DNA of 64,000 nt from Actinomycetota bacterium (GTDB lineage Bacteria; Actinomycetota; Actinomycetes; JAKEEW01), in contig JBKPTD010000005.1 of NCBI GenBank assembly GCA_046735375.1, positions 10,132 to 74,131 of the forward strand, in the 5' to 3' direction. The notes beneath the pieces are model-generated. The model was not told the DNA's origin. It saw only the letters and a program-made list of their open reading frames with translations, and made no database searches. Every line of letters starts with the position of its first letter. Position 1 is the stretch's first letter. Below are positions 4,575-56,809 of the stretch, piece by piece. The position numbers were made by a program, and so were the translations under genes.

Positions 4575-6506
4575 TTGTCGCCCGTACACTCCTTTGCCAT
4601 GGATACGGCCGTTTCCGATCCGCTTGTCGGTCGGCTGATCGACGGTCGCTACCACGTCGAGGGACGTATCGCCCGCGGCGGGATGGCCGCGGTCTACTAC
4701 GCGGTCGACACCAGGCTGGATCGACCGGTCGCTCTCAAGGTCATGCACTCCGCTCTCTCCGATGATCAACAGTTCGTTCACCGGTTCATCGGCGAGGCGA
4801 AGACGGCCGCGCGGCTGTCACACCCGAATGTCGTCAGCGTCTTCGACCAGGGAACCCATGAAGGGCTTGTCTACCTCGCGATGGAATATGTCGAGGGAAG
4901 GACGCTGCGGGAGATTCTCGGCGAACACGGACCGCTGACACCCCGGCAGGCGTTCGGCGTCTTGGAGCCGGTCCTCGCCGCGCTCGGCGCTGCCCATCAG
5001 GCGGGGCTCGTGCACCGGGATGTCAAGCCGGAGAACATCCTGCTCGCCGACGACGGGCGAGTGAAGGTCGCCGACTTTGGGCTGGCCCGGGCGACCACCC
5101 AAGCGACGGCACAGACCTCGGACGGCATTCTTCTCGGTACGGTCGCGTACCTGTCCCCCGAACAAGTCAGCCGCGGTGTCTCCGACCCGGCCTCTGACGT
5201 TTACTCGGCCGGCATCGTCCTGTACGAGATGCTCACCGGGCAGAAGCCGTTCACCGGCGACGGCTCGATGGAGATCGCATACCAGCATGTCCACCGAGAC
5301 GTGCCGGCGCCCTCCGAGAAGGTTCCTGCGCTGTCACCGATGGTCGACGCGATCGTCGCTCGAGCGACTCGCCGCGATCCTGCCCAGCGACCCGCAGATG
5401 CCGCTGCGATGCTGGCAGAGGTCACCGGCGTCGCGCAGCGGATGAGCGACGCGGAGCTGGACGCCGGAGGGGCCAAGGCCGGCCGACATGCGTCCAACGA
5501 GCCGGTCACCCAGCAGATGGCCCCAGTCGATGGGCTGGCGGCCGCTGACGAGGACGGCGCTGAACGGACCGCGGTCGTCGATGCGCGGCAGCAGGCAAGG
5601 GCCCGCGGATCACGCTGGACACGCATGTCTCGCCGGCGTCGGCTCGCCACGCTGGCTGCTGTCGTGGGTGCGGCTCTGCTGGTCACCGGCTTCGCCTGGT
5701 GGCTGGTCGGCGGTGCCAAGACCAATGTGCCGAGCGTTCGCGGCATGACCCAAGCCGCGGCGACAGAAGCCGTTCAGGATGCCGGGCTCAAGGTCCAGGT
5801 GAGCGAGCCGGTCTTCAGTGAGGACGTGCAGCCGGGACTCGTGGCCGGAAGCGATCCCGCGCCCGGTGCGCGAGTGGATCGCGGTTCGGCGGTCACCCTC
5901 CACCTGTCGAAGGGTCCCGAGCGGCACGAGGTGCCGGATCTCCGCGGAAGGACCGTAGACCAAGCCGAGCAGTTGCTCGCGCAGCAGAATCTGAAAGTCG
6001 GCAAGATCACGCACGGGTTCAGCAGCTCGGTCGCGAAGAACCGGATCGTTTCCACCAATCCTGCGGCCGGTGAGGAGGTCCGTCGCGACACAGCGATCGC
6101 GTTGGTGGTGAGCAAGGGCCCAGAGCCCGTCGACGTCCCGGTTGTGACCGGCCGCAATGTCACCGAGGCGACGCAGGTCCTCCAGCAGGCCGGTTTCCGC
6201 GTCACGACCAGGACGGCAGCCTCGGACAAGGTCGCCAGGGATCTGGTGATCAGCCAGAAGCCCAGTGGCGGAAGCGCTCCCCGCGGATCAACCGTCGAGC
6301 TCACCGTGTCGACCGGACCGCCCCTCGTGACGGTCCCTGATGTGCGTGACAAGCAGGTCGATCAGGCACAGCAGATCCTGCAGAGCGCAGGGCTACAGGT
6401 CAGCGTCCTGCGCCTGCCCGGCGGTCCTGGCATCGTTCTTGCCCAGAGCCCAGGCCCAGGTAGTCAGGCCCCGAGGGGCTCCACGGTGCGCATCTCCGTC
6501 TTCTGA
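4575..6506 (+). CDS. pknL: Ser/Thr protein kinase with four C-terminal PASTA domains (PknL/PknB-like)
   Basis: Hanks kinase motifs are intact (VALKV, HRDVKPENILL, DFG, SPEQ). A TM helix and four PASTA repeats follow, and the gene is adjacent to an Rv2175c homolog. Confidence 0.85.
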   Translation: MSPVHSFAMDTAVSDPLVGRLIDGRYHVEGRIARGGMAAVYYAVDTRLDRPVALKVMHSALSDDQQFVHRFIGEAKTAARLSHPNVVSVFDQGTHEGLVYLAMEYVEGRTLREILGEHGPLTPRQAFGVLEPVLAALGAAHQAGLVHRDVKPENILLADDGRVKVADFGLARATTQATAQTSDGILLGTVAYLSPEQVSRGVSDPASDVYSAGIVLYEMLTGQKPFTGDGSMEIAYQHVHRDVPAPSEKVPALSPMVDAIVARATRRDPAQRPADAAAMLAEVTGVAQRMSDAELDAGGAKAGRHASNEPVTQQMAPVDGLAAADEDGAERTAVVDARQQARARGSRWTRMSRRRRLATLAAVVGAALLVTGFAWWLVGGAKTNVPSVRGMTQAAATEAVQDAGLKVQVSEPVFSEDVQPGLVAGSDPAPGARVDRGSAVTLHLSKGPERHEVPDLRGRTVDQAEQLLAQQNLKVGKITHGFSSSVAKNRIVSTNPAAGEEVRRDTAIALVVSKGPEPVDVPVVTGRNVTEATQVLQQAGFRVTTRTAASDKVARDLVISQKPSGGSAPRGSTVELTVSTGPPLVTVPDVRDKQVDQAQQILQSAGLQVSVLRLPGGPGIVLAQSPGPGSQAPRGSTVRISVF

Positions 6507-6530
6507 CGTCTTCTGACCGCTGCCGTTTCG

Positions 6531-6579
6531 TATGAAGGGCACCTTCACCCCATCTATTCGGGTGAAGGTGCCCTTCATA
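6531..6579. repeat. REP-like palindromic element copy 1 (19-nt perfect arms ATGAAGGGCACCTTCACCC / GGGTGAAGGTGCCCTTCAT, 9-nt loop)
   Basis: A perfect inverted repeat seen directly in the sequence. It lies between convergent genes (kinase stop 6506, minus-strand gene stop 6703), and the same element recurs at 36134 and 52979. Confidence 0.85.
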
Positions 6580-6702
6580 CGCCTCGGGATGAGACAAGCG
6601 TTCCCTTCACACATCGCAGGATTGGCACACGTGGCCGGTGAGGGAGACCGTGCCGGGAGATCGCGCTGCTCAAGGAGCTGCGGGACGCGCCGACATGCAT
6701 GG

Positions 6703-7095
6703 TCATGGTCTAGGGCAACGGTCACCTTCGATCACGACCTCGACGTCGTCGTCTAGCCCGAGTGGCGGCTTCGATAGATCGGCGACGACCACCGTGACAG
6801 CCGGTGTGGTCGGGTCGGCCGTGCGCACGAGGAGATTCAATCGAGTCGTGTTGTCCTCGACGGACGCCACGCGGGTGCGCTCCCCCGGGCCAATCCGCTT
6901 CCAGTGAAGATCTTTCCCGCTCTCTAGCGAGCCCACGCTTGTCTCGATGGCCTGCTTACATCGGTTAGCCACACTGACGCTGAGTGTCTTTTGACAGGCG
7001 GTCATGAAGGCAAGAACGGCCGTTATAGCGGCAACGAGCGCAACGGCTTGCCTCGAGGTGGATCTCGGCAGTTCCATGGGCACCGCTGTCATCAT
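6703..7095 (-). CDS. Small secreted protein or lipoprotein (hypothetical)
   Basis: N-terminal signal peptide (RSTSRQAVALVAAITAVLAFMTAC) with a GGGAG Shine-Dalgarno. The ORF's upstream extension to 7374 looks spurious. Confidence 0.4.
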   Translation of the reverse strand: MMTAVPMELPRSTSRQAVALVAAITAVLAFMTACQKTLSVSVANRCKQAIETSVGSLESGKDLHWKRIGPGERTRVASVEDNTTRLNLLVRTADPTTPAVTVVVADLSKPPLGLDDDVEVVIEGDRCPRP

Positions 7096-7159
7096 GGTTC
7101 CGATCTCCCACACGCCGCAACGCGACAGGTCGCGCCTCCAGGTAGGCTCCGCTAGCAAC

Positions 7160-8071
7160 GTGCGTGCCTCTCGATCAGTCCCCTTCGCTTTGGCCGGTCT
7201 CCTGATCGTCTGTATGTGGTGGGGGGCGACGTTCGTCGTCGTCAAGGACGCTGTCGAACGCATGCCGGTGATGGACTTCCTGGCCGTGCGGTTCCTCATC
7301 GCCGCGGCGGTGATGGTGGCGATCAGGCCCCGCGTCATACCGGCGGTCAGTCGCTCACTGGGTAGCTGGCGCACCGGTCTTGCTGCTCACGGCACACTGC
7401 TCGGGCTCGCTTTGGGTCTTGGCTATGTCGGGCAGACCTTCGGCCTGCAGCACACCTCCGCGACAATCTCCGGGTTCATCACGGGCATGTTCGTGGTCTT
7501 CACCCCGCTGATCGCCGCAGTGCTTCTTCGGCGGCCGGTTGGTACCTCCGCCTGGGTCGGTGTGCTCCTTGCCACGACCGGCCTCGCGGTGATTTCGCTG
7601 CATGGGTTCTCCATCGGCCTCGGGGAGGGCCTGACGCTGCTTTGTGCAGCGCTGTTCGGTCTCCACATCGTCGGTCTTGGTGAGTGGTCACCCCGCTATG
7701 ACTCGTACGCCCTGGCCGTTGTCCAGCTCACCGCCGTCGGCGTTCTCTGCGCGATCGCCGCGGCACCTGGCGGACTGACCGCACCACCTGACCGCGCGGC
7801 CTGGGGTGCGGTCCTGATCACCGCGCTGTTCGCCACCGCCTTTGCATTCGTTGTCCAGACGTGGGCACAGACGGTCCTCTCGCCCACTCGAACAGCTGTG
7901 GTCATGACCATGGAGCCGGTATTCGCCGGGCTCTTCGGGGTCCTCGTCGGAGGCGACAATCTGACGGCGCGCATCGTCATCGGTGGCACGCTTGTCGTCG
8001 CCGCTATGTACATCGTCGAACTCGGGCCACGCCACTCAGTGGATGCGCGCGTGGGCCGACTCGAGACGTGA
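7160..8071 (+). CDS. DMT-superfamily (EamA-like) transporter
   Basis: About 10 TM helices with duplicated EamA-like halves. The start is uncertain (GTG at 7160 or ATG at 7094); the ORF as listed begins at 7004. Confidence 0.6.
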   Translation: MRASRSVPFALAGLLIVCMWWGATFVVVKDAVERMPVMDFLAVRFLIAAAVMVAIRPRVIPAVSRSLGSWRTGLAAHGTLLGLALGLGYVGQTFGLQHTSATISGFITGMFVVFTPLIAAVLLRRPVGTSAWVGVLLATTGLAVISLHGFSIGLGEGLTLLCAALFGLHIVGLGEWSPRYDSYALAVVQLTAVGVLCAIAAAPGGLTAPPDRAAWGAVLITALFATAFAFVVQTWAQTVLSPTRTAVVMTMEPVFAGLFGVLVGGDNLTARIVIGGTLVVAAMYIVELGPRHSVDARVGRLET

Positions 8072-8195
8072 AGCCGACCGATGAGTTAGGCTGCCGCTCG
8101 TGCAGCATGCACGCTGGTTCTTTTATGGCGGTCGGCCCGGGAGGTTCCGGGCGGGCGGCCTGATCAGCGCGCGCTGACCAAGACCGAACGTCCAC

Positions 8196-8227
8196 GAGAG
8201 CCCCGGGCCGGGAGGCCCGGGGCTCTC
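8196..8227 (+). promoter_or_regulatory. Perfect 12-bp stem hairpin (GAGAGCCCCGGG-ccgggagg-CCCGGGGCTCTC) in the aroG-I leader / downstream of the DMT gene
   Basis: Inverted repeat seen directly in the sequence, 40 nt upstream of the DAHP synthase start. A 14-nt palindrome TCAGCGCGCGCTGA lies at 8162-8177. Confidence 0.4.
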
Positions 8228-8267
8228 GGTGTCTCCCGCCCGCATACACCCATCAAGGAGTCCTGGG

Positions 8268-14712: not shown

Positions 14713-16236
<1,524 letters not shown>

Positions 16237-16365
16237 TCAGGCGCGTTTTGATGTCCCAGGGCGCGGAGTGCGGGCGGACGTGCTCGGCCGGGCCGGCAGC
16301 GTGCGGTTGCCACCGGAAGGTACTGTTGCATACCAATCTGCATCCCGCTTTGATACCATCCCGGT

Positions 16366-19095: not shown

Positions 19096-19839
19096 CTACG
19101 CCGCTTGGTCGCGTGCCGCCGACTCGTCCGCGGACGTGGGGATCCGCTTGGGGTGCTTTGCCGCACTGATTAGGTCCTTGGCCTTGGTGGCGTACATGTC
19201 GACGTACTCCTGACCGGACAGCTGCATCAGTTCGTACATGATCTCGTCGGTCACTGACCGCAGCACGAACCGGTCGGACTCCATGCCTTCGTAACGCGAG
19301 AAGTCCAGAGGCTTGCCGAACCGCACACCCGGCCTGATGATCTTGGGCAGGATCCGCCCGGGTGGCTGCAGCTTCTCTGTGTCGATCATGGCGACGGGGA
19401 TGACCGGCACCTTGGCGGCGAGGGCGAGTCTTGCGATCCCGGTCCGGCCCCGGTAGAGCCGGCCGTCGGGCGAGCGGGTGCCCTCGGGATAGAGAGCGAA
19501 GAGTTCCCCCCGCTCGAGGATCTTCAGGCCGGTGCGGAGCGCTGCATCGGCCGCCCTGCCACCGGATCGATCGATGGGCACCTGCCCGGCGCCGCGGAAG
19601 AACCACGCGGTCAGCCGACCCTTGATGCCTGTGCCGGTGAAGTACTCGGCCTTGGCGGCGAACGTCACCCGCCGAGGAACCAGGAGGGGCATGAAAAACG
19701 AATCGGAGAACGAGAGATGGTTGCTGGCAATGATCGCTGGACCGTGCTCAGGAATGTTGTCGAGGCCCTCGACCCAGGGTCGCCATACGACTCGCAGGAT
19801 CGGGCCGATCAAGATCCGCTTGAGAAACCAGTAGAACAC
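19096..19839 (-). CDS. plsC: 1-acyl-sn-glycerol-3-phosphate acyltransferase (Rv2182c-like)
   Basis: Carries the NHLSFSD (HX4D) and PEGTR motifs. A GTG start at 19839, with a GGGAGG Shine-Dalgarno 4 nt upstream, gives 247 aa, the same length as Rv2182c. Confidence 0.75.
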   Translation of the reverse strand: MFYWFLKRILIGPILRVVWRPWVEGLDNIPEHGPAIIASNHLSFSDSFFMPLLVPRRVTFAAKAEYFTGTGIKGRLTAWFFRGAGQVPIDRSGGRAADAALRTGLKILERGELFALYPEGTRSPDGRLYRGRTGIARLALAAKVPVIPVAMIDTEKLQPPGRILPKIIRPGVRFGKPLDFSRYEGMESDRFVLRSVTDEIMYELMQLSGQEYVDMYATKAKDLISAAKHPKRIPTSADESAARDQAA

Positions 19840-20070
19840 GTCACCTCCCGCGATGTCTGTGGGCCGCACCGATCGTGACAGTCGAGCCGGCGACTCTTGG
19901 GATTGCCACGGTGAGACCCGCCGCGCGACCTCTCTGGTCAGGAACATTAAGGACAGTTGACCAACGAGGCAACGTGAGCCTACAGATCACCGTACGCCTC
20001 ACGACCTTCCCGCGACATGGTCATCGCGGGAGCGAGCCCACCCGCCTCAGCGCGTGGTCAGGACCGCATC

Positions 20071-20090
20071 GGGGGAAGGTGCCCTTCATG
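20071..20090. repeat. Half-copy of the REP-like palindrome (GGGGGAAGGTGCCCTTCATG)
   Basis: One arm only; it lies between the divergent plsC and hydrolase genes. Confidence 0.6.
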
Positions 20091-20128
20091 CGGTGACGGG
20101 GGTCGGGTGAACGTGGCACGATTCCGAC

Positions 20129-20950
20129 GTGATCCTGCCAGGCGCGGAGCCTTACTCTCATGATGGCGGGCCGATCGGAGCCCTGCTGATTCACGGCTTC
20201 ACCGGCTGCCCGCAGTCACTGCGGCCGTGGGCCGAATACCTCGCCGCCGCTGGGCTCACCGTGCGGCTGCCGCTGTTGCCCGGGCACGGACGCACCTGGC
20301 AAGAGCTGAACGCGACCCGCTGGCCGGAGTGGTACGCCGAGGTCGAGGCTGCACACACGGAGTTGACGTCGCGCTGCCAACAGGTCGTCGTCATGGGTCT
20401 GTCCTTCGGGGCCGCGCTGGCGCTGCACCTGGCGATCGAGCGTCCCGATGGTGTGCGCGGGCTGGTCCTGGTCAACACCTTCGTCCTCACGACCGACCGG
20501 CGCCAGGTGGCACTGCCCGCACTACGCTGGATCACCAGGAGCGTGCCGGGGGTCATCAGCGACATCAAGAAGTCGGGCGTCTCCGAACTCGGCTACAACA
20601 GGCTGCCCTTGCAAGCGCTCTACTCAGCGACGAGGTTCCAGCGCCAGTTGCGCGCGGCGCTGCCGCGACTGACCCAGCCGCTTCTCCTCTATCGCAGTGC
20701 CGAGGATCACGTCGTACCTGCGGCAAGTACGGCGTACGTTCTAAGACATGCCGGTTCGCCGGATATCGAGGAGATCATGCTGCCCAATAGCTACCACGTC
20801 GCGACGCTGGACAACGACGCCGAAGAGATCTTCGCCGGATCTCTTGCCTTCGCGCGCCGTCTCGGCAGCCGCCGGAACTCACCGGGAGCGTCCAACGGCC
20901 CGGTGACACCGCCTGAGCCCCGGGTCGACACGACCCACGCGGATGGCTGA
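20129..20950 (+). CDS. Alpha/beta-fold hydrolase (esterase/lysophospholipase-like)
   Basis: Has the GLSFGA nucleophile elbow (GxSxG) and an HGFTG oxyanion region. It uses a GTG start. Confidence 0.7.
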   Translation: MILPGAEPYSHDGGPIGALLIHGFTGCPQSLRPWAEYLAAAGLTVRLPLLPGHGRTWQELNATRWPEWYAEVEAAHTELTSRCQQVVVMGLSFGAALALHLAIERPDGVRGLVLVNTFVLTTDRRQVALPALRWITRSVPGVISDIKKSGVSELGYNRLPLQALYSATRFQRQLRAALPRLTQPLLLYRSAEDHVVPAASTAYVLRHAGSPDIEEIMLPNSYHVATLDNDAEEIFAGSLAFARRLGSRRNSPGASNGPVTPPEPRVDTTHADG

Positions 20951-24487: not shown

Positions 24488-25347
24488 CTAGTCCCGGGGC
24501 CGCACGAGGTCCCCTCTGGCCTGCTGCGCAGGCACACGAACGGTGGCCAGGACAGGGCGATGATCGCTAGCGACATCAAGACCAGGAAGATGCTCCGGTA
24601 CGCCGCATCGGACGACCTCGGTCTGATCGGAAACGAAGATGCCGTCGATCCGCTTATAGGGGTGCTTGGCGTTGCTCGTGAATTCGCCGCCCCACGGTGC
24701 CGCGGGATAGGCGTCGCGAAGCTTGGTGGCTAGGGCCCGCCACGATTCGCCGGTGGGGCGCTCATTGATATCGCCGGCCACGATGACATGTGGCGTGCCG
24801 ACGCCGGGAAGCGAGGCGACTCGGTCCACGTGTCCGAGCACCTCGTCGACCTGCTCCCTCCGCTCTTGCGCGAGGAGGGACAGGTGGATGCTGGCGACGC
24901 ACAGTCGAGCGGTTGTCGGGACGGGTCCCTGGCCAATACCGGGAATATCGACGATGGCTACGGCCACACCGCGCTGGTGAAGGCCGGGCAGCTTGGTCAG
25001 CTCGCGGTTCTCCGCATAGACCACCTGCGTTCGCAGGCTTCCGAGGAGCAGCATGGCACCGGCGGCCCGGCCCCCGGTGAGGACGACAAGGCCGCTCTCG
25101 TGAGCCAGCCAGGCGCATTTGGTGCGCCAGCGGAAGAACCGTGGAGCCTCCTGGATGCATGCGATGTCTGGGTCACAGTCGCGGATCACCTGGAACAGTG
25201 CCTGTGTGTCGTCCCGCATCGACCGGATGTTGTACGAGAGCACGCGCAGCTCCACGGTTCCGGCCGCGGGCTCGTCGACGCTCGCCAGTGCGCTGTCGCC
25301 AGCCGTTGCCGATGTACCTGCAGGCGGGACGACCTCATCGGTCATCC
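24488..25347 (-). CDS. Endonuclease/exonuclease/phosphatase (EEP) family protein, last gene of the iol/ABC operon
   Basis: Carries EEP motifs (RVLSYNIR, CIQEA, GDINE, SDHRPV). Its start lies 25 nt after the ABC ATPase stop. Confidence 0.65.
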
Positions 25348-25371
25348 CGCCTGCAGGTTCGGGCGTCGCGG

Positions 25372-35271: not shown

Positions 35272-35303
35272 CTTTGTCCTGTCAATGGTTTGTACTGACA
35301 AAG
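35272..35303 (+). promoter_or_regulatory. Candidate IolR (GntR/HutC) operator: CTTTGTC-N17-GACAAAG with an internal TGTACTGACA
   Basis: A 7-bp inverted repeat in the 84-bp divergent iolG/iolR intergenic region, resembling HutC-family GT-N-AC operators. Confidence 0.45.
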
Positions 35304-36064
35304 TGAGTAAAGTGTTAGCCGTGGTCGAGGCACCAGTCTCCATTGCGGTGGACCGCAGCAGCCCGGTGCCGCTCTACTTCCAGGTTGCGGAACAACTCGA
35401 ACGGGCGATAGAGAACGGCTCACTCCCGGCCGGCGTCCGCCTGGGCAACGAGGTACAGCTCGCCGAGCACTACGGCCTGTCGCGCCCGACGATGCGGCGG
35501 GCGATCCAGTATCTGGTCGACAAGGGGCTCTTGGTTCGTAAGCGAGGGGTCGGCACCCAGGTCCTGCATACCAAGGTCAGGCGGCCGATCGAGCTCACGA
35601 GCCTCTACGACGATCTCATCGGTGCCGGACAAGCGCCGACGACGCAGGTGCTGCAGAACACAGTCGTCTCGGCTGACGCCACGGTGGCGGTTGTCCTCGG
35701 CGTCGAGCCCGAGTCACCGGTGGTGTTCCTGGAGCGCCTGCGCTCGGCCGGTGACGAACCGCTGGCGCTGATGCGGAACTACCTGCCGGCAGATCTCATG
35801 GAGTTGACGACGGCTGCCCTCGAGTCCAACGGTCTCTACCAACTGCTGCGGGCCGCCGGCATCAATCCACGGGTCGCGCTGCAGTCGATCGGGGCCCGTG
35901 CGGCGCGCGGCGCGGAGGCACGTTTGCTCACCGAGCCGCGTGGTGCCCCGCTGCTCACCATGACCAGGACCACGTACGACGACTCCGGCAAGGCTGTCGA
36001 GTTCGGATCCCATGTCTACCGAGCCTCGCGGTACGCCTTCGAGCACACTCTCGTCGGCCGTTAG
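35285..36064 (+). CDS. iolR: GntR-family (HutC subfamily, UTRA domain) transcriptional regulator, putative iol repressor
   Basis: Winged HTH (LPAGVRLGNEVQLAEHYGLSRPTMRRAIQYLVDKGLL) followed by a UTRA effector domain. It is divergent from iolG. Confidence 0.7.
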   Translation: MVCTDKVSKVLAVVEAPVSIAVDRSSPVPLYFQVAEQLERAIENGSLPAGVRLGNEVQLAEHYGLSRPTMRRAIQYLVDKGLLVRKRGVGTQVLHTKVRRPIELTSLYDDLIGAGQAPTTQVLQNTVVSADATVAVVLGVEPESPVVFLERLRSAGDEPLALMRNYLPADLMELTTAALESNGLYQLLRAAGINPRVALQSIGARAARGAEARLLTEPRGAPLLTMTRTTYDDSGKAVEFGSHVYRASRYAFEHTLVGR

Positions 36065-36133
36065 GACCCTGCGGCCGGGCGACGCATTGCCCCATGCCGA
36101 GCATGAGGGGGACCCTTCCTCCATCCCGCTAGA

Positions 36134-36182
36134 CATGAAGGGCACCCTAGCCCGATGGGTCGGGGTGAGGGTGCCCTTCATG
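36134..36182. repeat. REP-like palindromic element copy 3 (ATGAAGGGCACCCTAGCCC-gatgggtc-GGGGTGAGGGTGCCCTTCAT)
   Basis: A near-perfect inverted repeat matching the 6531 and 52979 copies. It lies between convergent iolR and glk. Confidence 0.8.
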
Positions 36183-36237
36183 CGCAATGGGTTGGGCGTG
36201 AGACTCCCACGACTTCGTCCGCAACCCGCGGCCCGAC

Positions 36238-36292
36238 GCATCCCCAGGCAGGAGCTATGGCGGGGCATCCCCAGGCAGGAGCTATTGGCGGG
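36238..36292. repeat. 27-bp tandem direct duplication (CATCCCCAGGCAGGAGCTAT(T)GGCGGG x2) spanning the glk stop codon
   Basis: Two adjacent near-identical units seen directly in the sequence; the second unit overlaps the last codons and stop of glk. Confidence 0.7.
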
Positions 36293-37247
36293 CAAGGTCG
36301 GCAGCGCCGACGACTCCGGCCTCCGGACCGAGTTCGGCGATCTTTATCTCAGCCTCCGGGCGGTAGCCGCGGCCGACGAGGCCGCGGTGGAATGACTCAC
36401 GGGCGGGGCTGAGCAGAAGATCGCCGGCATCGGACACCCCTCCGCCGATGATGAAGCAGCCAGGGTCGAAAGCCGCGGCCAGCGACGCGAGCCCTACGCC
36501 GAGCCAGTGGCCGACGTCCTCGAGCAGTTCGATCGATGTCGGATCGCCGTCCTTCGCGGCCTGGGTGATCAAGGGGCCGGTGATGGCCGAGACATCCCCA
36601 CCGGCGAGGTCCAGGAGGGCGTTGGCGAGCGGCGCGCCGGATTCGGCAAGCTCCCGGCCCTCGCGCACGAGAGCATTTCCGCTCGCATATTGCTCCCAGC
36701 AGCCCTTGTTGCCACAGCCGCAGCGGACCCCACCCGGCACGACCTGCATGTGACCGAACTCTCCGGCAATGCCCCACCGACCGCGATAGAGCTGGCCGTC
36801 CAGCACGATTCCGCCGCCGATGCCGGTTCCCACGGTGACACAGACCACGTGATCCTGCCCTCGGCCCGCGCCGAATCGGGTCTCCCCCCAGGCAGCGGCG
36901 TTCGCGTCGTTCTCGACCATGATCGGCAGGCCGACACGCTTCTCCAGCTCGGCCTTGATCGGCTCTTCTCGCCAGGCAAGGTTGGGTGCGAAAAGAACCG
37001 TCCCCCGCTGCTGGTCGATGAAGCCTGCGGCGCCGATGCCTGCGGCCGCGATCCCCGGCCGGGCTCCCGCGAGGTCATTGATGGCGTCAGCGATCGTGTC
37101 CTCGGTCGCCTTCGGGTCGTGGGCAGGCGTCTCGCGCTTGTCAGAGACCAAGATCCGGCCAGACTCGTCCACTATCCCGGCCGCGACCTTCGTTCCCCCG
37201 ATGTCCACACCGATCGTGAGGGCCATCGAGTCGTCAGCCCTCGTCAC
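36282..37247 (-). CDS. glk: ROK-family glucokinase
   Basis: ROK motifs (GVDIGGTK, the CGCGNKGCWE zinc motif). Its order with the upstream small gene matches Streptomyces glkA-SCO2127. Confidence 0.85.
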   Translation of the reverse strand: MTRADDSMALTIGVDIGGTKVAAGIVDESGRILVSDKRETPAHDPKATEDTIADAINDLAGARPGIAAAGIGAAGFIDQQRGTVLFAPNLAWREEPIKAELEKRVGLPIMVENDANAAAWGETRFGAGRGQDHVVCVTVGTGIGGGIVLDGQLYRGRWGIAGEFGHMQVVPGGVRCGCGNKGCWEQYASGNALVREGRELAESGAPLANALLDLAGGDVSAITGPLITQAAKDGDPTSIELLEDVGHWLGVGLASLAAAFDPGCFIIGGGVSDAGDLLLSPARESFHRGLVGRGYRPEAEIKIAELGPEAGVVGAADLARQ

Positions 37248-51455: not shown

Positions 51456-52885
51456 GCGGCCAGATCGGCTACGTAGTCGCGCCAGGCCGCGGTGAACCGC
51501 TTGGCGGTCGTCCCGAGTACGCCGTCGAAGGCCGCCCCGAGGTTCGCCCTCCGGGTACCGCCGAACGTGCCGACTTCACGGTAGAAGGCGACGAGCTTGC
51601 TCTGGCCCTGTTGGTCGGCGACGAGTCGGCAGGCCAGCCACGCCTTCTCGTACGTCGCGGCAAGATTGTCACGTTGAACGTCGAAGTCCTTGTCGCTCGG
51701 GAGGACCTTCGGAGCACCGTCGAGCCGAACGTCTCGCAGAAGCTCGCGGGCCGCCACGTCCGCCGGCACGTCCGTACCGAGATAGCCGACGTAGTCGGCG
51801 AAGCCCTCCGACAGCCAGGTGGGGGTCCACGTGTTGGTCGATGTCCTGGTGGCCACATGCGTTATTTCATGGGTCATCACGATGCGGCGACCCGTGCTGC
51901 TGAGCTTCGCCCAGATGGCCGGGTTGATGACGATCCGATCAGCGACACCGACGTCGGTCGGCATCGCCGATTCCGCCCGGGTGATCGCGGCAATCTGGGC
52001 GTACTTCCCCGCTGGCGCACCGAGCAGCGCGGCCATCCTCGCCTGGCTGTCCGGAGCCAGTACCACGACCTTCTGCTCCCAGTCTGTCCCCCAGACCCTT
52101 GTCACGCGCGGCACGGCCGCATCGGCCTCACCTGCGTGCCGCTCGAGCGAGGCCCTGGCGCCCTGCCCGAGCACGATGCTGTGTTCACCCCGCACAACCG
52201 TGACCGGCCCGAAGTCCCAGAGCTGCCGCTGGGTGAGATAACCGGCCCTATCGCCATCGGTGTCTGCGGCGATGTACCAGTGGCCGCCGTGCTGCCCAAA
52301 GGTGTAGTAGAGGTCCAATCGCGCCGCGGTGTGGTCGTACCCGTCGATCCGGTACCGGGCGGTGACCTTCCCGGCGAACGCATCAATGCCGAGCTCGGTC
52401 TGCCGCGTCGCGGAGAGCTGGAACGGCGAGGCGTCGGTCAGTTTGTAGGTCCAGCCGCGATAAGGAACGGACGCCAACGCGTCGAACATCTTTTGCTGAC
52501 TCTGGACGAATCGCGGTGCGCCGGGGTCGACCGTCGCGAGGAACGACTCGCGATCTCGATGGCTGATCGCGGCTGCCCGCCGGTCGAGCATCGCCTGGAC
52601 GGCCACCAAGCGAGCTCGACTCGGATGGACCGATGTGCTCGGTGCCGGGGATCCCGCCGTCGCATTCGGACGCTCCGCGGTGCGCAGTCCGGCGTCGCTG
52701 CCCACCTGGTTGTACGCGACCACGCCAGCGGTGGCGAACAGCGAGAGCACTATCGCAACGGCAGCTAGGCGTGGGCGCCCGAGTCGCCCGCGTCGGGGCT
52801 GGCCGACCGTCGGCAGGGTCGGGCTGTCACCGTCCCGCGACGCGACGTCGACCGCCGCGGGATCGGCTCGCTCGCCATCCTGCAC
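51452..52885 (-). CDS. Membrane-anchored hypothetical protein with C-terminal HExxH (putative zinc peptidase-like domain)
   Basis: N-terminal TM anchor and an MTHEITHV motif. It is translationally coupled to the M48 peptidase. Confidence 0.45.
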   Translation of the reverse strand: MQDGERADPAAVDVASRDGDSPTLPTVGQPRRGRLGRPRLAAVAIVLSLFATAGVVAYNQVGSDAGLRTAERPNATAGSPAPSTSVHPSRARLVAVQAMLDRRAAAISHRDRESFLATVDPGAPRFVQSQQKMFDALASVPYRGWTYKLTDASPFQLSATRQTELGIDAFAGKVTARYRIDGYDHTAARLDLYYTFGQHGGHWYIAADTDGDRAGYLTQRQLWDFGPVTVVRGEHSIVLGQGARASLERHAGEADAAVPRVTRVWGTDWEQKVVVLAPDSQARMAALLGAPAGKYAQIAAITRAESAMPTDVGVADRIVINPAIWAKLSSTGRRIVMTHEITHVATRTSTNTWTPTWLSEGFADYVGYLGTDVPADVAARELLRDVRLDGAPKVLPSDKDFDVQRDNLAATYEKAWLACRLVADQQGQSKLVAFYREVGTFGGTRRANLGAAFDGVLGTTAKRFTAAWRDYVADLAA

Positions 52886-52978
52886 GTGCGTGACTCCCCT
52901 TCGGACTGACCCGGACCTAGAGAGGCGTATGCCCAGCGAGGCCGACTCTCACGGACGTTAGCGATCGTACGGCGCCCG

Positions 52979-53027
52979 CATGAAGGGCACCTTCACCCGA
53001 TGGGTCCGGGTGAAGGTGCCCTTCATG
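52979..53027. repeat. REP-like palindromic element copy 4 (ATGAAGGGCACCTTCACCC-gatgggtcc-GGGTGAAGGTGCCCTTCAT) plus degenerate half-site at 53056-53070
   Basis: A perfect inverted repeat identical in its arms to copy 1. Here it lies in a divergent intergenic region. Confidence 0.85.
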
Positions 53028-53187
53028 CCTGTCCGGATCGAGCAAGGGCGCCTTTCATGCCCGGCAGGTGCACGGATGCCCCCTCTCCGACCTGGGTTGT
53101 CTGCCTCAGGCAGTCATGCCGCTGCTCGGTACCGCGGTGAAACTGTCCGCCCAGACGGCTAGCGTGGCCATGACTGGGAGGACACCA

Positions 53188-53943
53188 ATGGACGACATGT
53201 CTGGCAGGACCACGATCGTCGTCGGTGCAAGCCGGGGCCTCGGCCACGGGATCGCCACAGCCTTCGCCCAGGCCGGCGCCCCGGTGGTCGCAGTATCCCG
53301 TACCCAGGCGGCTTTTCCCGAGTCGGCCAACGGCGCCAGCGCCATCCGGACGGAAGTGGCCGATGCCAGTGACGCCACGGTGGTGGGCAGCCTCATCGAC
53401 CGTTACGAGCCAGTGACCGTCATTTTGGTGGCCGGCGCTAGCCCGCACATGCGCCCGCTGCAGCAACAGACCTGGGAGACGTTCTCGGTCAACTGGGAGA
53501 CCGATGTCCGAATCACGTTCCACTGGCTGCGCGAGGCGCTGCTCAAGCCGCTGCGGCCAGGCAGCAGGGTGGTCGTGTTCAGCAGCGGCGCGGCGCTGAA
53601 CCCGAACGGTTCACCGCTCAGCGGCGGATACGCCGGCGCCAAGGCCACACAGCGCTTCATCACCGGATATGCCCAGGACGAGGCGAGGCGCGCCGGACTT
53701 GACATCACGTTCACCGCGGTGCTCCCACGGTTCGCGCCCATGACCGGCGTCGGCCCGCCAGCAGTCCAGGCGTACGCGACCCTCGCCGGCCAGTCCGTAG
53801 ACGATTACCTCGATCAGCTGGACTTCTCGCCGCTGACCCCGGAGATCGCCGGCACCGCACTGGTCAAGCTGATACAGGAGGATGCCGCCAACGTCGCCCC
53901 CGCCTATGTGTTGACCGGCGCCGGGCTGCAGAAGCCACCCTGA
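53188..53943 (+). CDS. Short-chain dehydrogenase/reductase (SDR)
   Basis: Glycine-rich NAD(P)-binding loop (GASRGLG) and catalytic YxxxK (YAGAKA). Confidence 0.75.
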   Translation: MDDMSGRTTIVVGASRGLGHGIATAFAQAGAPVVAVSRTQAAFPESANGASAIRTEVADASDATVVGSLIDRYEPVTVILVAGASPHMRPLQQQTWETFSVNWETDVRITFHWLREALLKPLRPGSRVVVFSSGAALNPNGSPLSGGYAGAKATQRFITGYAQDEARRAGLDITFTAVLPRFAPMTGVGPPAVQAYATLAGQSVDDYLDQLDFSPLTPEIAGTALVKLIQEDAANVAPAYVLTGAGLQKPP

Positions 53944-54031: not shown

Positions 54032-55045
54032 CTAGCCGACGCGGCGGGCGGCCACGAACGGCATTGTGTCGATCGCCGTCACCTTGACGACATCACCGGG
54101 GTGCGGGGCATGGATCATAAGCCCCTCCCCGATGTAGATGCCGACGTGACTGATCGGGCTGTAGAAGAAGACCAGGTCGCCAGGTTGCAGGCTTGACCTG
54201 GAGACGGCGACGCCGACCTGAGCTTGCGCGGCCGAGACCCTGGGCAGGGTGACCCCCGCGGCTTGATAGGCACCAAGGGTCAAACCGGAGCAGTCCCACG
54301 AGCTGGGCCCGGTGGCCCCCCACACGTAGGGCTCACCGACCTGGTCTATGGCGAAGCGGACCGCCTTGCCGGCGCGGCCGCTTGGCAGGTTCTCCTTGAT
54401 GCTGTCCGGGACGACCAGCGAACCGGTCGACCGCAAAAAAGCACGCTGTTCGAGCTTGAGCGTCGCGAGCAACCCGTTGGCCCTTCGCATGCTCGCCTCG
54501 ATCGCGTCCCGCTTCTCGGTCATCGCGTTCTGCAGCTGCTCGATCTCACCGATCTGCCGAGTTGCCTGCGAGCGAATGGTCAGCAGATCCTGGCGGGCCA
54601 TCTCGACCCTGCGCAGTGCGTCCGCCTGCTGCGCGGACAGTTGATCGAGTGTTGTCGCCTGCTCGAGGAACTGCTGGGGATCGTCGGACAGGAACAGCTG
54701 GAGGGTCTGGTCGACGCCACCACTGCGGTAGGCCATCGTCGCGAAGATGCCGTTCTCCGTGAGCAGCTTGTCCAGCTGGTTCTGCTGCTCACCGACACGC
54801 TCTTGCGTGACCTTCAGCTCCCGCTCGGCAGCGCGCATTCGGTCCTGGTAGCCGTTGTACTGCTCGGTGGCCACTTCTGCACCGTGGTAGAGCTCACCGA
54901 TCTTCTTCTGGACATCGGTGATGCTCGTCGGATCCGCCTGCCCCGCAGAGGGGACCGTGATCAGAAGTGCCGTCGCGGCGGCTGATAAAACGCCAAGAGT
55001 GCGCGCCGGACGAAAACCACTGTGCGACGCCAACTGGTGTGGCAC
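54032..55045 (-). CDS. NlpC/P60 peptidoglycan endopeptidase with N-terminal coiled-coil (RipA/RipC-like)
   Basis: Signal peptide, ~200-aa coiled coil, and a C-terminal NlpC/P60 domain (Cys in DCSGL, His in SHVGIY). It uses a GTG start. Confidence 0.8.
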   Translation of the reverse strand: MPHQLASHSGFRPARTLGVLSAAATALLITVPSAGQADPTSITDVQKKIGELYHGAEVATEQYNGYQDRMRAAERELKVTQERVGEQQNQLDKLLTENGIFATMAYRSGGVDQTLQLFLSDDPQQFLEQATTLDQLSAQQADALRRVEMARQDLLTIRSQATRQIGEIEQLQNAMTEKRDAIEASMRRANGLLATLKLEQRAFLRSTGSLVVPDSIKENLPSGRAGKAVRFAIDQVGEPYVWGATGPSSWDCSGLTLGAYQAAGVTLPRVSAAQAQVGVAVSRSSLQPGDLVFFYSPISHVGIYIGEGLMIHAPHPGDVVKVTAIDTMPFVAARRVG

Positions 55046-55054
55046 CCCTTCTTC

Positions 55055-55205
55055 CTCCCACCGCCGACCGGGTGAGCTGACGGGTTCGGGCGGGGAAGAT
55101 CGGCCCTACGGTGCGTCGCATCCAGGCGTCACACCGATTCACCCCTGGGATCCACTGGGTCCCCGGCTCCGCTCGCAGCCGGTTGAGAATTCGCCGGCGA
55201 GGTCG
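55055..55205 (-). ncRNA. ydaO (c-di-AMP) riboswitch, copy A
   Basis: The minus strand reads ...CCGGGGACCC...CAGGGGUGAAUCGGUGUGACGCCUGGAUGCGACGCACCGUAGGGCCGAUCUUCCCCGCCCGAACCCGUCAGCUCACCCGG..., matching the conserved ydaO blocks. It sits immediately 5' of a purine-rich Shine-Dalgarno and the NlpC/P60 start. Confidence 0.7.
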
Positions 55206-55497
55206 CAGATTAGGCGGGACGTCCGCCCTCATCCCCGGTGGGATGAGCGTCCGTAGCGGACGTCTGGCGCGAAAACATATCGGTGATCAGGTACGCGGAG
55301 CAAGCACCGGAGCGGTCCGCTTCATGACAGTCCAACGATGCTGCACGCGGCAGACGGGCACGGCAATCTGAGCGAGCGGCGCGGCGGCCAGGATCATCGT
55401 GACAGCCGCAATCCATGGAGCGAGGCGCCGGCCGGGGCTCGGCGGAGGTCCCGGCCGTAACGCCTCACGTATCAAAGATGGCGTCCGAGGCGACGTG

Positions 55498-56520
55498 TCA
55501 CCCGGGCCGAGTGGCGCCCACGAAGGGCATGTAGCTGCCAGAAATGGACGTGATCTTCACGACGTCACCCGGGTGCGGCGCGTGGATCATCTTGCCGCCA
55601 CCGATGTAGATGCCAACATGGCTGATCGGGCTGTAGAAGAAGACCAAGTCGCCAGGCTGCAATTGACCTTGTGACACGTGCGTGCCATAGCCGTACTGCA
55701 GGCTGGACGAGTGAGGCAACGAGACGCCGGCCGCGCGCCAGGCCGCCATCGTGAGGCCTGAGCAGTCGTAAGACCCCGGGCCATCTGCTGCCCATTGATA
55801 GGGCTTGCCGAGCTGGGCGTAGGCGAAGTTGACCGCCAGCTTCGCGCGGCCGCTTGCCGGCACGCTTGAGGTTGGGGTCGTGGTCTGCTGCGTGGTAGGC
55901 GGCGGCTCGCTGGGCGTATTCAATGCCGCTCGCTGCGCCGCCGTGAGGCGGCTGAGCAGGGCATTGGCCCGCTGCAGCTTCTTTCTGACCTCTGCTTCCT
56001 TGGCCTTCAGGTCGTCGCGGACCTTGTCGATCTCGGCCAGTTTCTGGCGTGCGGTCAGCTTCGTCTGCTCGAGCTGCTGCTTGGCAAGCCGCAGCCGACG
56101 CAGCGCGTCAGCTTGCTGGGTGGACAGCTGGTCGAGTGTGGTCGCCTGATCGAGGAACAGTCTCGGATCGTCCGAGGTGAGCAGTTGGATGGTTTCATCG
56201 ACTCCGGCGTTGCGATAGGCCATCGTCAGATAGATGCCGACCTCGTCCTGTAATGCGTCGAGCGAGCGCTGCTGGGCGGCGACGCGATCCTGGATCACGC
56301 GCAACTGCTTCTCGGCCGCTTTGAGGTTCTCTGTCGCCACGTTGACTTGCTCGACGACCGCGTCGACCTCGTGATCGAGCTTGTTGACCTCGTCGCGGAC
56401 TTCGCTGATGGATCGCGGGTCAGCGTAGCTCGCGTCGGGCATGACGACGAATCCGACGGCAGTGGCGGTGCAGAGAGCGACCAGTGTGCGTACATAACGG
56501 CGTGAACCGACAGACGCCAC
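55498..56520 (-). CDS. NlpC/P60 peptidoglycan endopeptidase with N-terminal coiled-coil (paralog)
   Basis: Same architecture as the 54032 gene, with a nearly identical C-terminal catalytic domain. Confidence 0.8.
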   Translation of the reverse strand: MASVGSRRYVRTLVALCTATAVGFVVMPDASYADPRSISEVRDEVNKLDHEVDAVVEQVNVATENLKAAEKQLRVIQDRVAAQQRSLDALQDEVGIYLTMAYRNAGVDETIQLLTSDDPRLFLDQATTLDQLSTQQADALRRLRLAKQQLEQTKLTARQKLAEIDKVRDDLKAKEAEVRKKLQRANALLSRLTAAQRAALNTPSEPPPTTQQTTTPTSSVPASGRAKLAVNFAYAQLGKPYQWAADGPGSYDCSGLTMAAWRAAGVSLPHSSSLQYGYGTHVSQGQLQPGDLVFFYSPISHVGIYIGGGKMIHAPHPGDVVKITSISGSYMPFVGATRPG

Positions 56521-56539
56521 CAGAGCGGCACCCCTCTTC

Positions 56540-56690
56540 CTCTGGCCGCCTACCGGGTGAGCTGACGGGTTCGGGCTGGGGAAGACAAGCCCTACAACGC
56601 GCCAGGGCGCGTTGATTCACCCCAGGGAAGATTGGTTCCCCGGCTCCCTCGGAGCCCATTGGTGCCATCTGGGCCCGTCGGGACTCGGCG
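56540..56690 (-). ncRNA. ydaO (c-di-AMP) riboswitch, copy B
   Basis: Minus strand: ...CCGGGGAACCAAUCUUCCCUGGGGUGAAUCAACGCGCCCUGGCGCGUUGUAGGGCUUGUCUUCCCCAGCCCGAACCCGUCAGCUCACCCGGUAGG.... Differences from copy A are confined to one hairpin, which here is a perfect stem (AACGCGCC-CU-GGCGCGUU). Confidence 0.75.
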
Positions 56691-56809
56691 GAGGTCTCCG
56701 CCGACCACTCCGGTTGAGCAGCCGTCGGCGCGGACACCTGGTGCGGAACCATACTCATGATCCGCTCGCGGAGCAATGCGAACCGCCGTTTCTTGTGGAA
56801 AACGCCTGG

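Follow-up and report, generated by a model that had tools for sequence, protein, structure and literature searches.

The locus raises a question that its letters pose at first sight: what kind of sequence is the palindrome of about 50 bp that recurs between unrelated genes in this 64,000-nt stretch of actinomycete DNA (referred to, in its whole length, as the window)? A sequence-only reading had counted three full copies with identical arms and had favoured a dispersed repeat, or a shared protein-binding site, over a simple terminator. The repeat family itself is real. Indeed, the 19-nt arm ATGAAGGGCACCTTCACCC is matched seven times in the 64-kb window at three mismatches or fewer, where 0.01 matches are expected, and this 700-fold excess over chance was equalled by none of 100 shuffles. 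With a 21-nt query allowed up to six mismatches, degenerate arms are recovered as well and the window holds four sites with nine arms in total; two further six-mismatch matches of the same query fall within the 0–6 expected by chance.

The four sites differ in their state of preservation. Site A (6530-6580) is a perfect 51-bp inverted doublet made of the arms 6530-6550(+) and 6560-6580(-) around the 9-nt loop CATCTATTC, and its palindrome is lengthened by the flanking bases to 22 nt per arm (6529-6581, CGTATG.../...CATACG). The first part of site D (52978-53028) is equally perfect, its 51-bp inverted doublet having arms of 22 nt and the 7-nt loop ATGGGTC. The identity of arms that had been claimed for three copies holds for these two and fails for the third, at 36134-36182. 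There, the doublet of site C (36133-36183, loop GATGGGTCG) is imperfect, its left arm showing three mismatches to the 19-mer and its right arm one, with one T-to-C change common to both. Site B is the isolated arm that had been announced near 20071-20090, and it is present as GCATGAAGGGCACCTTCCCCC on the minus strand (20071-20091), with a single mismatch, which falls within the 19-mer (20071-20089). As for the degenerate arm that had been located at 53056-53070, it actually lies at 53040-53060(-) with the sequence GCATGAAAGGCGCCCTTGCTC, exactly 32 bp after the right arm of site D. Its counterpart in site C, GCATGAGGGGGACCCTTCCTC at 36101-36121(+), had been overlooked; it carries 6/21 mismatches and precedes the hairpin's left arm by 32 bp, which is the geometry of tandem arms in this family.

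An alignment of 132 arms defines the repeat unit as an arm of ~22 nt, (C)GCATGAAGGGCACCTTCACCC(C), with (C)GC-ATGAAGG at its 5' end and CACCC(C) at its 3' end in the position-frequency table; sequence conservation falls off directly beyond these ends. Each arm contains a mini-palindrome of its own, TGAAGG-GCA-CCTTCA, with a 6-bp stem and a 3-nt loop, and the unit folds as DNA at -4.1 kcal/mol, a value that 5 of 200 shuffles attain. The arms come in three arrangements, namely 51-bp inverted doublets, lone arms and same-orientation arrays with a period of 32 bp. Their spacing is sharply defined, the outer ends of inverted arms being 50 nt apart in 51 cases (other spacings are scattered) and same-orientation arms being spaced by 32 nt in 27 cases, up to an array of five units in one contig (L057). 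In the doublets, the 7–9-nt loop carries a conserved and orientable motif, ATAGGT or its complement ACCTAT. Since both this motif and the boundaries of the unit are conserved, whole elements, and not half-sites alone, are related by descent. Two other readings of the arms were discarded. The 32-bp arrays are not CRISPRs, because the would-be spacers are themselves repeated, and the idea of a translation start in each arm (an outward SD-like GAAGGTG followed by ATG) was dropped, the lone arm at 20071 giving ATG CGG TGA.

This anatomy recalls the REP, BIME and REPIN sequences of E. coli and Pseudomonas, with which the family shares a short palindromic unit found as inverted hairpin doublets, singlets and even tandems, extragenic copies lying mostly after genes, the lack of target duplication and persistence at orthologous sites (PMC3116915, PMC5581495). 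In Pseudomonas fluorescens SBW25, REPs have been described as singlets, as REPIN clusters and as tandems of even spacing (PMC3116915). The likeness stops at the unit ends, since one end of the classical REP unit bears a conserved tetranucleotide, GTAG or CGTC (PMC3733652), and such a tag is absent from either end of the present unit in the position-frequency table of the 132 arms. The family also differs from REP and REPIN sequences by its own stem of 6 bp, its spacer of 7–9 nt and its actinomycete host.

Perfect inverted termini present in many copies could also be those of a MITE composed of the two inverted repeats that bound an insertion sequence of the DDE type, and there is a possible 8-nt resemblance, GAAGGTGC, to the terminal repeat of IS5. 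This origin is essentially excluded. The sequence-only reading had proposed to look for target-site duplications beside the copies, and none exist: no direct repeats border any copy inspected, several flanks prolonging the palindrome instead. In addition, a length of 51 bp is far under the usual size of a MITE, arms often occur alone or in direct tandem, no full-length insertion sequence with these ends occurs among the loci, and the genes found between distant arm pairs are housekeeping genes only according to Pfam.

The family extends well beyond the window. A scan for the exact arm in 185,579 species genomes matched at least 90 stretches, and true elements were found in two soil MAGs named 'Actinomycetes bacterium' (SMAG_U4126 and SMAG_U4576), on at least about 40 contigs; two further MAGs with the element, U4657 and U7063, appear among the matches listed. 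The pattern of the full hairpin matched 24 soil metagenome contigs. Altogether, about 63 sites were counted in 46 loci, plus the 24 metagenome contigs, and dozens of unrelated intergenic loci carry the element in related soil MAGs and metagenome contigs. Kribbella, Bosea, Streptomyces, Umezawaea and others also contributed matches, none of which counts as a member of the family: each is a lone MKGTFT coding match, in frame and without a second arm. The collections of viral contigs, plasmids and phage records gave no match to the element. Synteny with the window was found for three contigs, L035, L067 and L101, with an identity of 90%, 90% and 85%, respectively, so the window belongs to the same clade of uncultured soil actinomycetes. 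One contig (L041, DASXSD01, SMAG_U4657) was binned as 'Candidatus Dormiibacterota' while being 98.4% identical to another of SMAG_U4126 (L009, DATBRJ01) and bearing the same element; its label is probably a binning error. A rearranged form is found in five contigs of Motilibacteraceae MAGs (L016, L018, L039, L068 and L083), where two cores lie 30–32 nt apart with their flanks swapped, in the layout GGGTGAAGG...-AATAGGTTCGT-ATGAAGG...CACCC with the same ATAGGTTCG linker. This form still folds into a long, imperfect hairpin.

The position of the copies relative to genes bears directly on their possible function. Site A had been placed between convergent genes, pknL and an ORF at 6703, and this setting was not upheld. 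The element lies 25 nt past the stop codon of a PASTA Ser/Thr kinase gene (4575-6506, +; Pfam) and about 425 nt ahead of an EamA transporter gene (7004-8071, +). The ORF 6703-7374(-) matches nothing in Pfam and shares ~370 nt with the well-supported EamA gene; it is probably spurious and not a gene, which puts site A between co-directional genes. The types of genes flanking the other copies were borne out by Pfam. Site B stands between divergent genes for an acyltransferase (19096-19947, -) and an alpha/beta hydrolase (20129-20950, +), site C between convergent genes for a GntR/UTRA regulator (35285-36064, +) and a ROK glucokinase (36282-37247, -), and site D between divergent genes for an M1-like peptidase and an SDR protein. 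The divergent setting of site D may be secondary, since the SDR gene (53068-53943) has no counterpart in L035 (4488-4577), the syntenic MAG contig, through an indel of ~860 bp, at ~150 bp from the element, which in that contig lies downstream of an NlpC/P60 gene instead. The start of the SDR gene is probably ATG 53188, behind GGGAGG, rather than GTG 53068.

A broader count was made in the window and 46 related loci with a self-trained, and hence crude, codon model. Among 63 sites, 20 were co-directional, 17 convergent, 11 divergent and 10 unclassifiable, while five were called inside genes; four of these five calls are artefacts of 5' extension by the crude ORF caller, and only the case of gltB (see below) is real. 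Strictly intergenic placement, for which the sequence-only reading had proposed a check, holds for essentially all copies, with a single in-frame exception. Measured against the intergenic regions of these loci, convergent settings are enriched (17 sites where 8–10 are expected) and divergent ones are not depleted (11 of the 48 classified sites versus 12–14 expected), the test giving p = 0.003 by length and p = 0.054 by count. Most copies are located at most 50 nt past a stop codon, within a range of -4 to about +70, and the stop TGA even falls within the arm in L001/L014. Relative to a single upstream gene, the loop is oriented one way in 12 cases and the other way in 3, in small numbers that include orthologues.

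Such a placement brings to the fore a rival explanation in which the copies would be conserved bidirectional 3'-end RNA hairpins, acting as factor-assisted terminators, stabilisers or insulators and kept by host selection without any mobility, in the manner of the TRIT sequences of Mycobacterium. Besides the proximity to stop codons, the enrichment between convergent genes and the biased loop orientation, it benefits from the great stability of the hairpins on both strands, the doublet folding at -49 kcal/mol as RNA (z = -10) and at -28.7 kcal/mol as DNA (z = -13). TRIT, with 147 palindromic copies per 4.4 Mb near stop codons, shows that such families exist in Actinomycetota (PMC3152330). Nonetheless, we consider this explanation unlikely. 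The hairpins are followed by GC-rich sequence and by no T-tract, which mycobacterial RNA polymerase needs in vitro (PMC3993855), and the region 52500-53500 around site D contains no terminator-like site. Few TRITs overlap mapped termini, and their role as terminators is poorly backed by later mapping. The chance-level share of divergent sites and the conservation of lone arms and of 32-bp tandem arms do not fit 3'-end hairpins either, and a hairpin function needs no 22-nt identity at unrelated loci. A comparison of the motif with Rfam, which the sequence-only reading had suggested, yielded no family at the gathering threshold; in the E-value scan, the best match on the element was mir-942, with 31 bits versus a threshold of 100, among other miRNA-like hairpins below threshold.

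By analogy, TRIT is the closest actinobacterial counterpart of the family. Both are found in Actinomycetota as bidirectional palindromes conserved in sequence and structure, near or overlapping stop codons and without a canonical U-tract, and their densities are alike (147 copies per 4.4 Mb there versus 4 sites per 64 kb here). However, TRIT is reported from Mycobacterium only and sits in a narrow position around -8 from the stop, whereas the present family ranges from -4 to about +70 with a quarter of divergent sites. The two are set apart by description, as no TRIT family exists in Rfam. The other families named for comparison (REP or SMAG of Streptomyces and Mycobacterium) proved to be loose analogies only, SMAG being a REP family of Stenotrophomonas and not of actinobacteria.

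Orthologous sites tell how the copies age. Relatives carry the element at the position that corresponds to each of the three window sites that could be compared (B, C and D). In the case of site D, the arms match those of the L035 copy at 44/44 positions in flanks that are about 83% identical, and the degenerate arm is kept as well. The lone arm of site B is what is left of a full hairpin, which MAG contig L067 has retained at the orthologous position. The copy at site C has decayed. Its orthologue in L101, a metagenome contig, forms a perfect hairpin with an inverted loop: GATGGGTCG (36154-36162) matches CGATCTATC of L101 (5789-5797) at 7/9 positions as the reverse complement and at 0/9 directly, which suggests an inversion of the spacer between perfect arms or a replacement of the copy. 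The extra arm at 36101-36121(+) is also found at the orthologous site in L101. Elsewhere, a site common to five contigs of four lineages retains both arms perfect (44/44) in flanks that are 84–95% identical and interrupted by indels, and other orthologous pairs show one perfect arm with the second decayed by 3–6 changes, or extra arms or sequence in one genome. No clean pair of filled and empty orthologous sites was found in intergenic DNA, all compared sites keeping at least one arm. Since only loci with an exact copy of a perfect arm were retrieved, conservation is over-estimated in this comparison; judged from the unbiased side, that of the window, the copies do not clearly decay more slowly than neutral sequence. 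The intergenic regions bearing the element also display large indels between genomes of 90% identity.

The way in which arms decay is informative about what is preserved. No covariation between the two arms was detected beyond that of shuffles in 52 distinct doublets, 406 of 500 shuffles reaching the observed paired fraction, and the decay of one arm is not compensated by the other, which speaks against 3'-end RNA hairpins under host selection. Covariation in the mini-hairpin is weak, being reached by 3 of 500 shuffles and resting on three cells. As the long stem does no better than shuffles, we make no claim of a selected RNA structure; it is the sequence of the arm, rather than the long stem as such, that is kept.

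Conservation of sequence rather than pairing is what would be anticipated from another rival, in which the arms are phased duplex binding sites for a lineage-specific dimeric protein (a nucleoid-associated protein or a global regulator). Such a protein would recognise the dyad TGAAGG-N3-CCTTCA cooperatively, with 30–32 bp corresponding to about three turns of the helix. The retention of single arms at orthologous sites, the fixed distance between centres whatever the orientation (30 bp in the hairpins and the Motilibacteraceae variant, 32 bp in the tandems) and the presence of copies in promoter and terminator regions alike are consistent with this proposal. However, sites of transcription factors are normally degenerate, while here 22-nt arms and a loop motif are identical at many loci. 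In addition, the flanks outside the dyad are conserved, and the long hairpin can always form, even in the Motilibacteraceae variant. Most copies follow stop codons with no obvious regulon among their neighbours, and no candidate protein has been identified. Taken as a whole, this evidence makes a family of protein-binding sites alone quite improbable.

A further line of evidence comes from copies in new places. Identical 22-nt arms stand at unrelated loci, and the spread of the family has reached many intergenic sites that are unrelated to each other and, in one instance, a coding linker. In that instance (L063, DASYTV010000088.1, 400-545, minus strand), a hairpin at 473-521 with a tail of ~64 nt lies in frame within gltB, where it occupies the linker that joins the GATase_2 (amidotransferase) domain of the large subunit of glutamate synthase to its central domain. 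About 37 residues of this gltB product (HEGHLHPIGRGEGHIHLPGDRGNGATT...) are missing from its nine best homologues. The element encodes HEGHLHPIGRGEGHIH, then the residues of the tail, in the sole reading frame of the three in which the element contains no stop codon; the centre of its second arm is flipped (GGGCAC). Its tail also contains the linker GGATCGAG of the degenerate arm of site D, and this common linker suggests that a doublet and its tail were copied as a block. A further case is a locus with two hairpins 228 bp apart and a degenerate arm between them (L007, 189-463), of which the orthologues in three other contigs (L037, 1896-1941; L105; L107) have one hairpin each. The coding copy speaks against 3'-end hairpins, too. 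On the whole, the earlier preference for a dispersed repeat or shared binding site over a simple terminator is well founded, given the dozens of unrelated loci and the missing T-tract on the one hand and, on the other hand, the divergent sites at chance level, the lack of compensatory pairing and the in-frame gltB copy.

A dispersed repeat that is copied would call for a mobilising enzyme. We searched the six-frame ORFs of the window and of 70 loci (8-kb blocks around some copies, ~550 kb), a sample of low power for this purpose. Neither phmmer with approximate queries for E. coli RayT and the TnpA of IS200 and IS608 nor a regular expression for the HUH...Y..NP motif returned a RAYT or IS200-like ORF in these ~550 kb, which would be another difference from REP and REPIN systems. 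Since the GTAG/CGTC tag is lacking and a link to a RAYT is at most putative, the family is best described as one that may work like a REPIN rather than as a proven member of that class.

With these elements in hand, the explanation that we favour, with slightly better than even confidence, is that of a lineage-specific REP/REPIN-like repeat family spreading by copying, through a putative mobilising enzyme acting in trans. In this REPIN-like scheme, pairs of 22-nt arms inverted around the ATAGGT-type loop would form a 51-bp hairpin doublet comparable to a REPIN, and singlets and 32-bp-phased tandem arms would be products of its decay or expansion. The whole doublet, sometimes with its tail, would be copied through a single-stranded hairpin intermediate by a RAYT/HUH-type or functionally similar enzyme that acts in trans and leaves no target duplication. 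Once in place, copies persist at orthologous positions in different species, and they would be tolerated and perhaps useful just past stop codons. Transcription of either strand yields a very stable RNA hairpin, which might shield mRNA 3' ends or set their position, and act as an insulator between convergent genes. As a more speculative variant, to which we give a rather low probability, the family could be a REPIN-like replicator of Actinomycetota that does without a classical RAYT. The 15-bp dyad, phased by 30–32 bp, would be the target of a protein peculiar to the lineage, be it a new enzyme of the HUH type, an enzyme of another kind or a DNA-binding protein that has been domesticated. This protein would both copy the elements and homogenise their arms across species, and the single open frame of the element would give it access to coding regions as well.

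Palindromic repeats inside genes have a precedent in the Rickettsia palindromic elements, which are about 100–150 bp long and typically located within genes. The gltB copy is similar to them as a palindromic repeat in frame within a coding gene, and the family differs in that a single coding copy was seen. A comparison can also be made with the DUS of Neisseria and the USS of Haemophilus, whose paired uptake sequences act as terminators in inverted pairs after genes. Like them, the present family is an over-represented oligomer that often forms an inverted pair after genes; unlike them, it is built on a conserved unit of 22 nt, roughly double their length, and combines a conserved loop with phased tandem arrays. 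Literature searches with the core sequence retrieved unrelated primers only, and those on REP or RAYT in Actinobacteria nothing specific. As far as these searches show, the repeat family is undescribed, although its kind, the dispersed palindromic repeat, is already known.

REP/REPIN-type repeats have been studied almost solely in Proteobacteria, and TRIT of mycobacteria, the only family of Actinomycetota that bears comparison, has no agreed function. A second and unrelated family in actinomycetes offers a comparative handle on the role and the spread of such elements, owing to its clear anatomy (unit, doublet and phased arrays), its orthologous copies and at least one coding insertion. Its interest would rise further if a non-RAYT mechanism or a binding protein emerged. 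The family also has practical consequences for the annotation and binning of soil MAGs. Its arms generate spurious MKGTFT-type ORFs, exact-word searches with the arm return false homology to real proteins, and the elements are landmarks of intergenic regions whose arrangement changes from one related genome to another.

Finally, the window contains other structured sequences that do not belong to the family. Inverted repeats unrelated to the element are present at 8195-8228, 25316-25358 and 16181-16269. The first has a perfect 15-bp stem and lies in the gap between the EamA gene (end 8071) and an ORF that starts at 8229; the two others comprise 19-nt arms with a 95% match and a 30-nt imperfect pair. 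Beyond site D, two tandem genes on the minus strand (54032-55045 and 55498-56520, in the region 54032-56697) encode NlpC/P60 peptidoglycan hydrolases, each preceded by a c-di-AMP (ydaO-type) riboswitch (55047-55209, 67 bits; 56532-56697, 74 bits). These two riboswitches, away from the element, are the sole matches of the window to Rfam at the gathering threshold.
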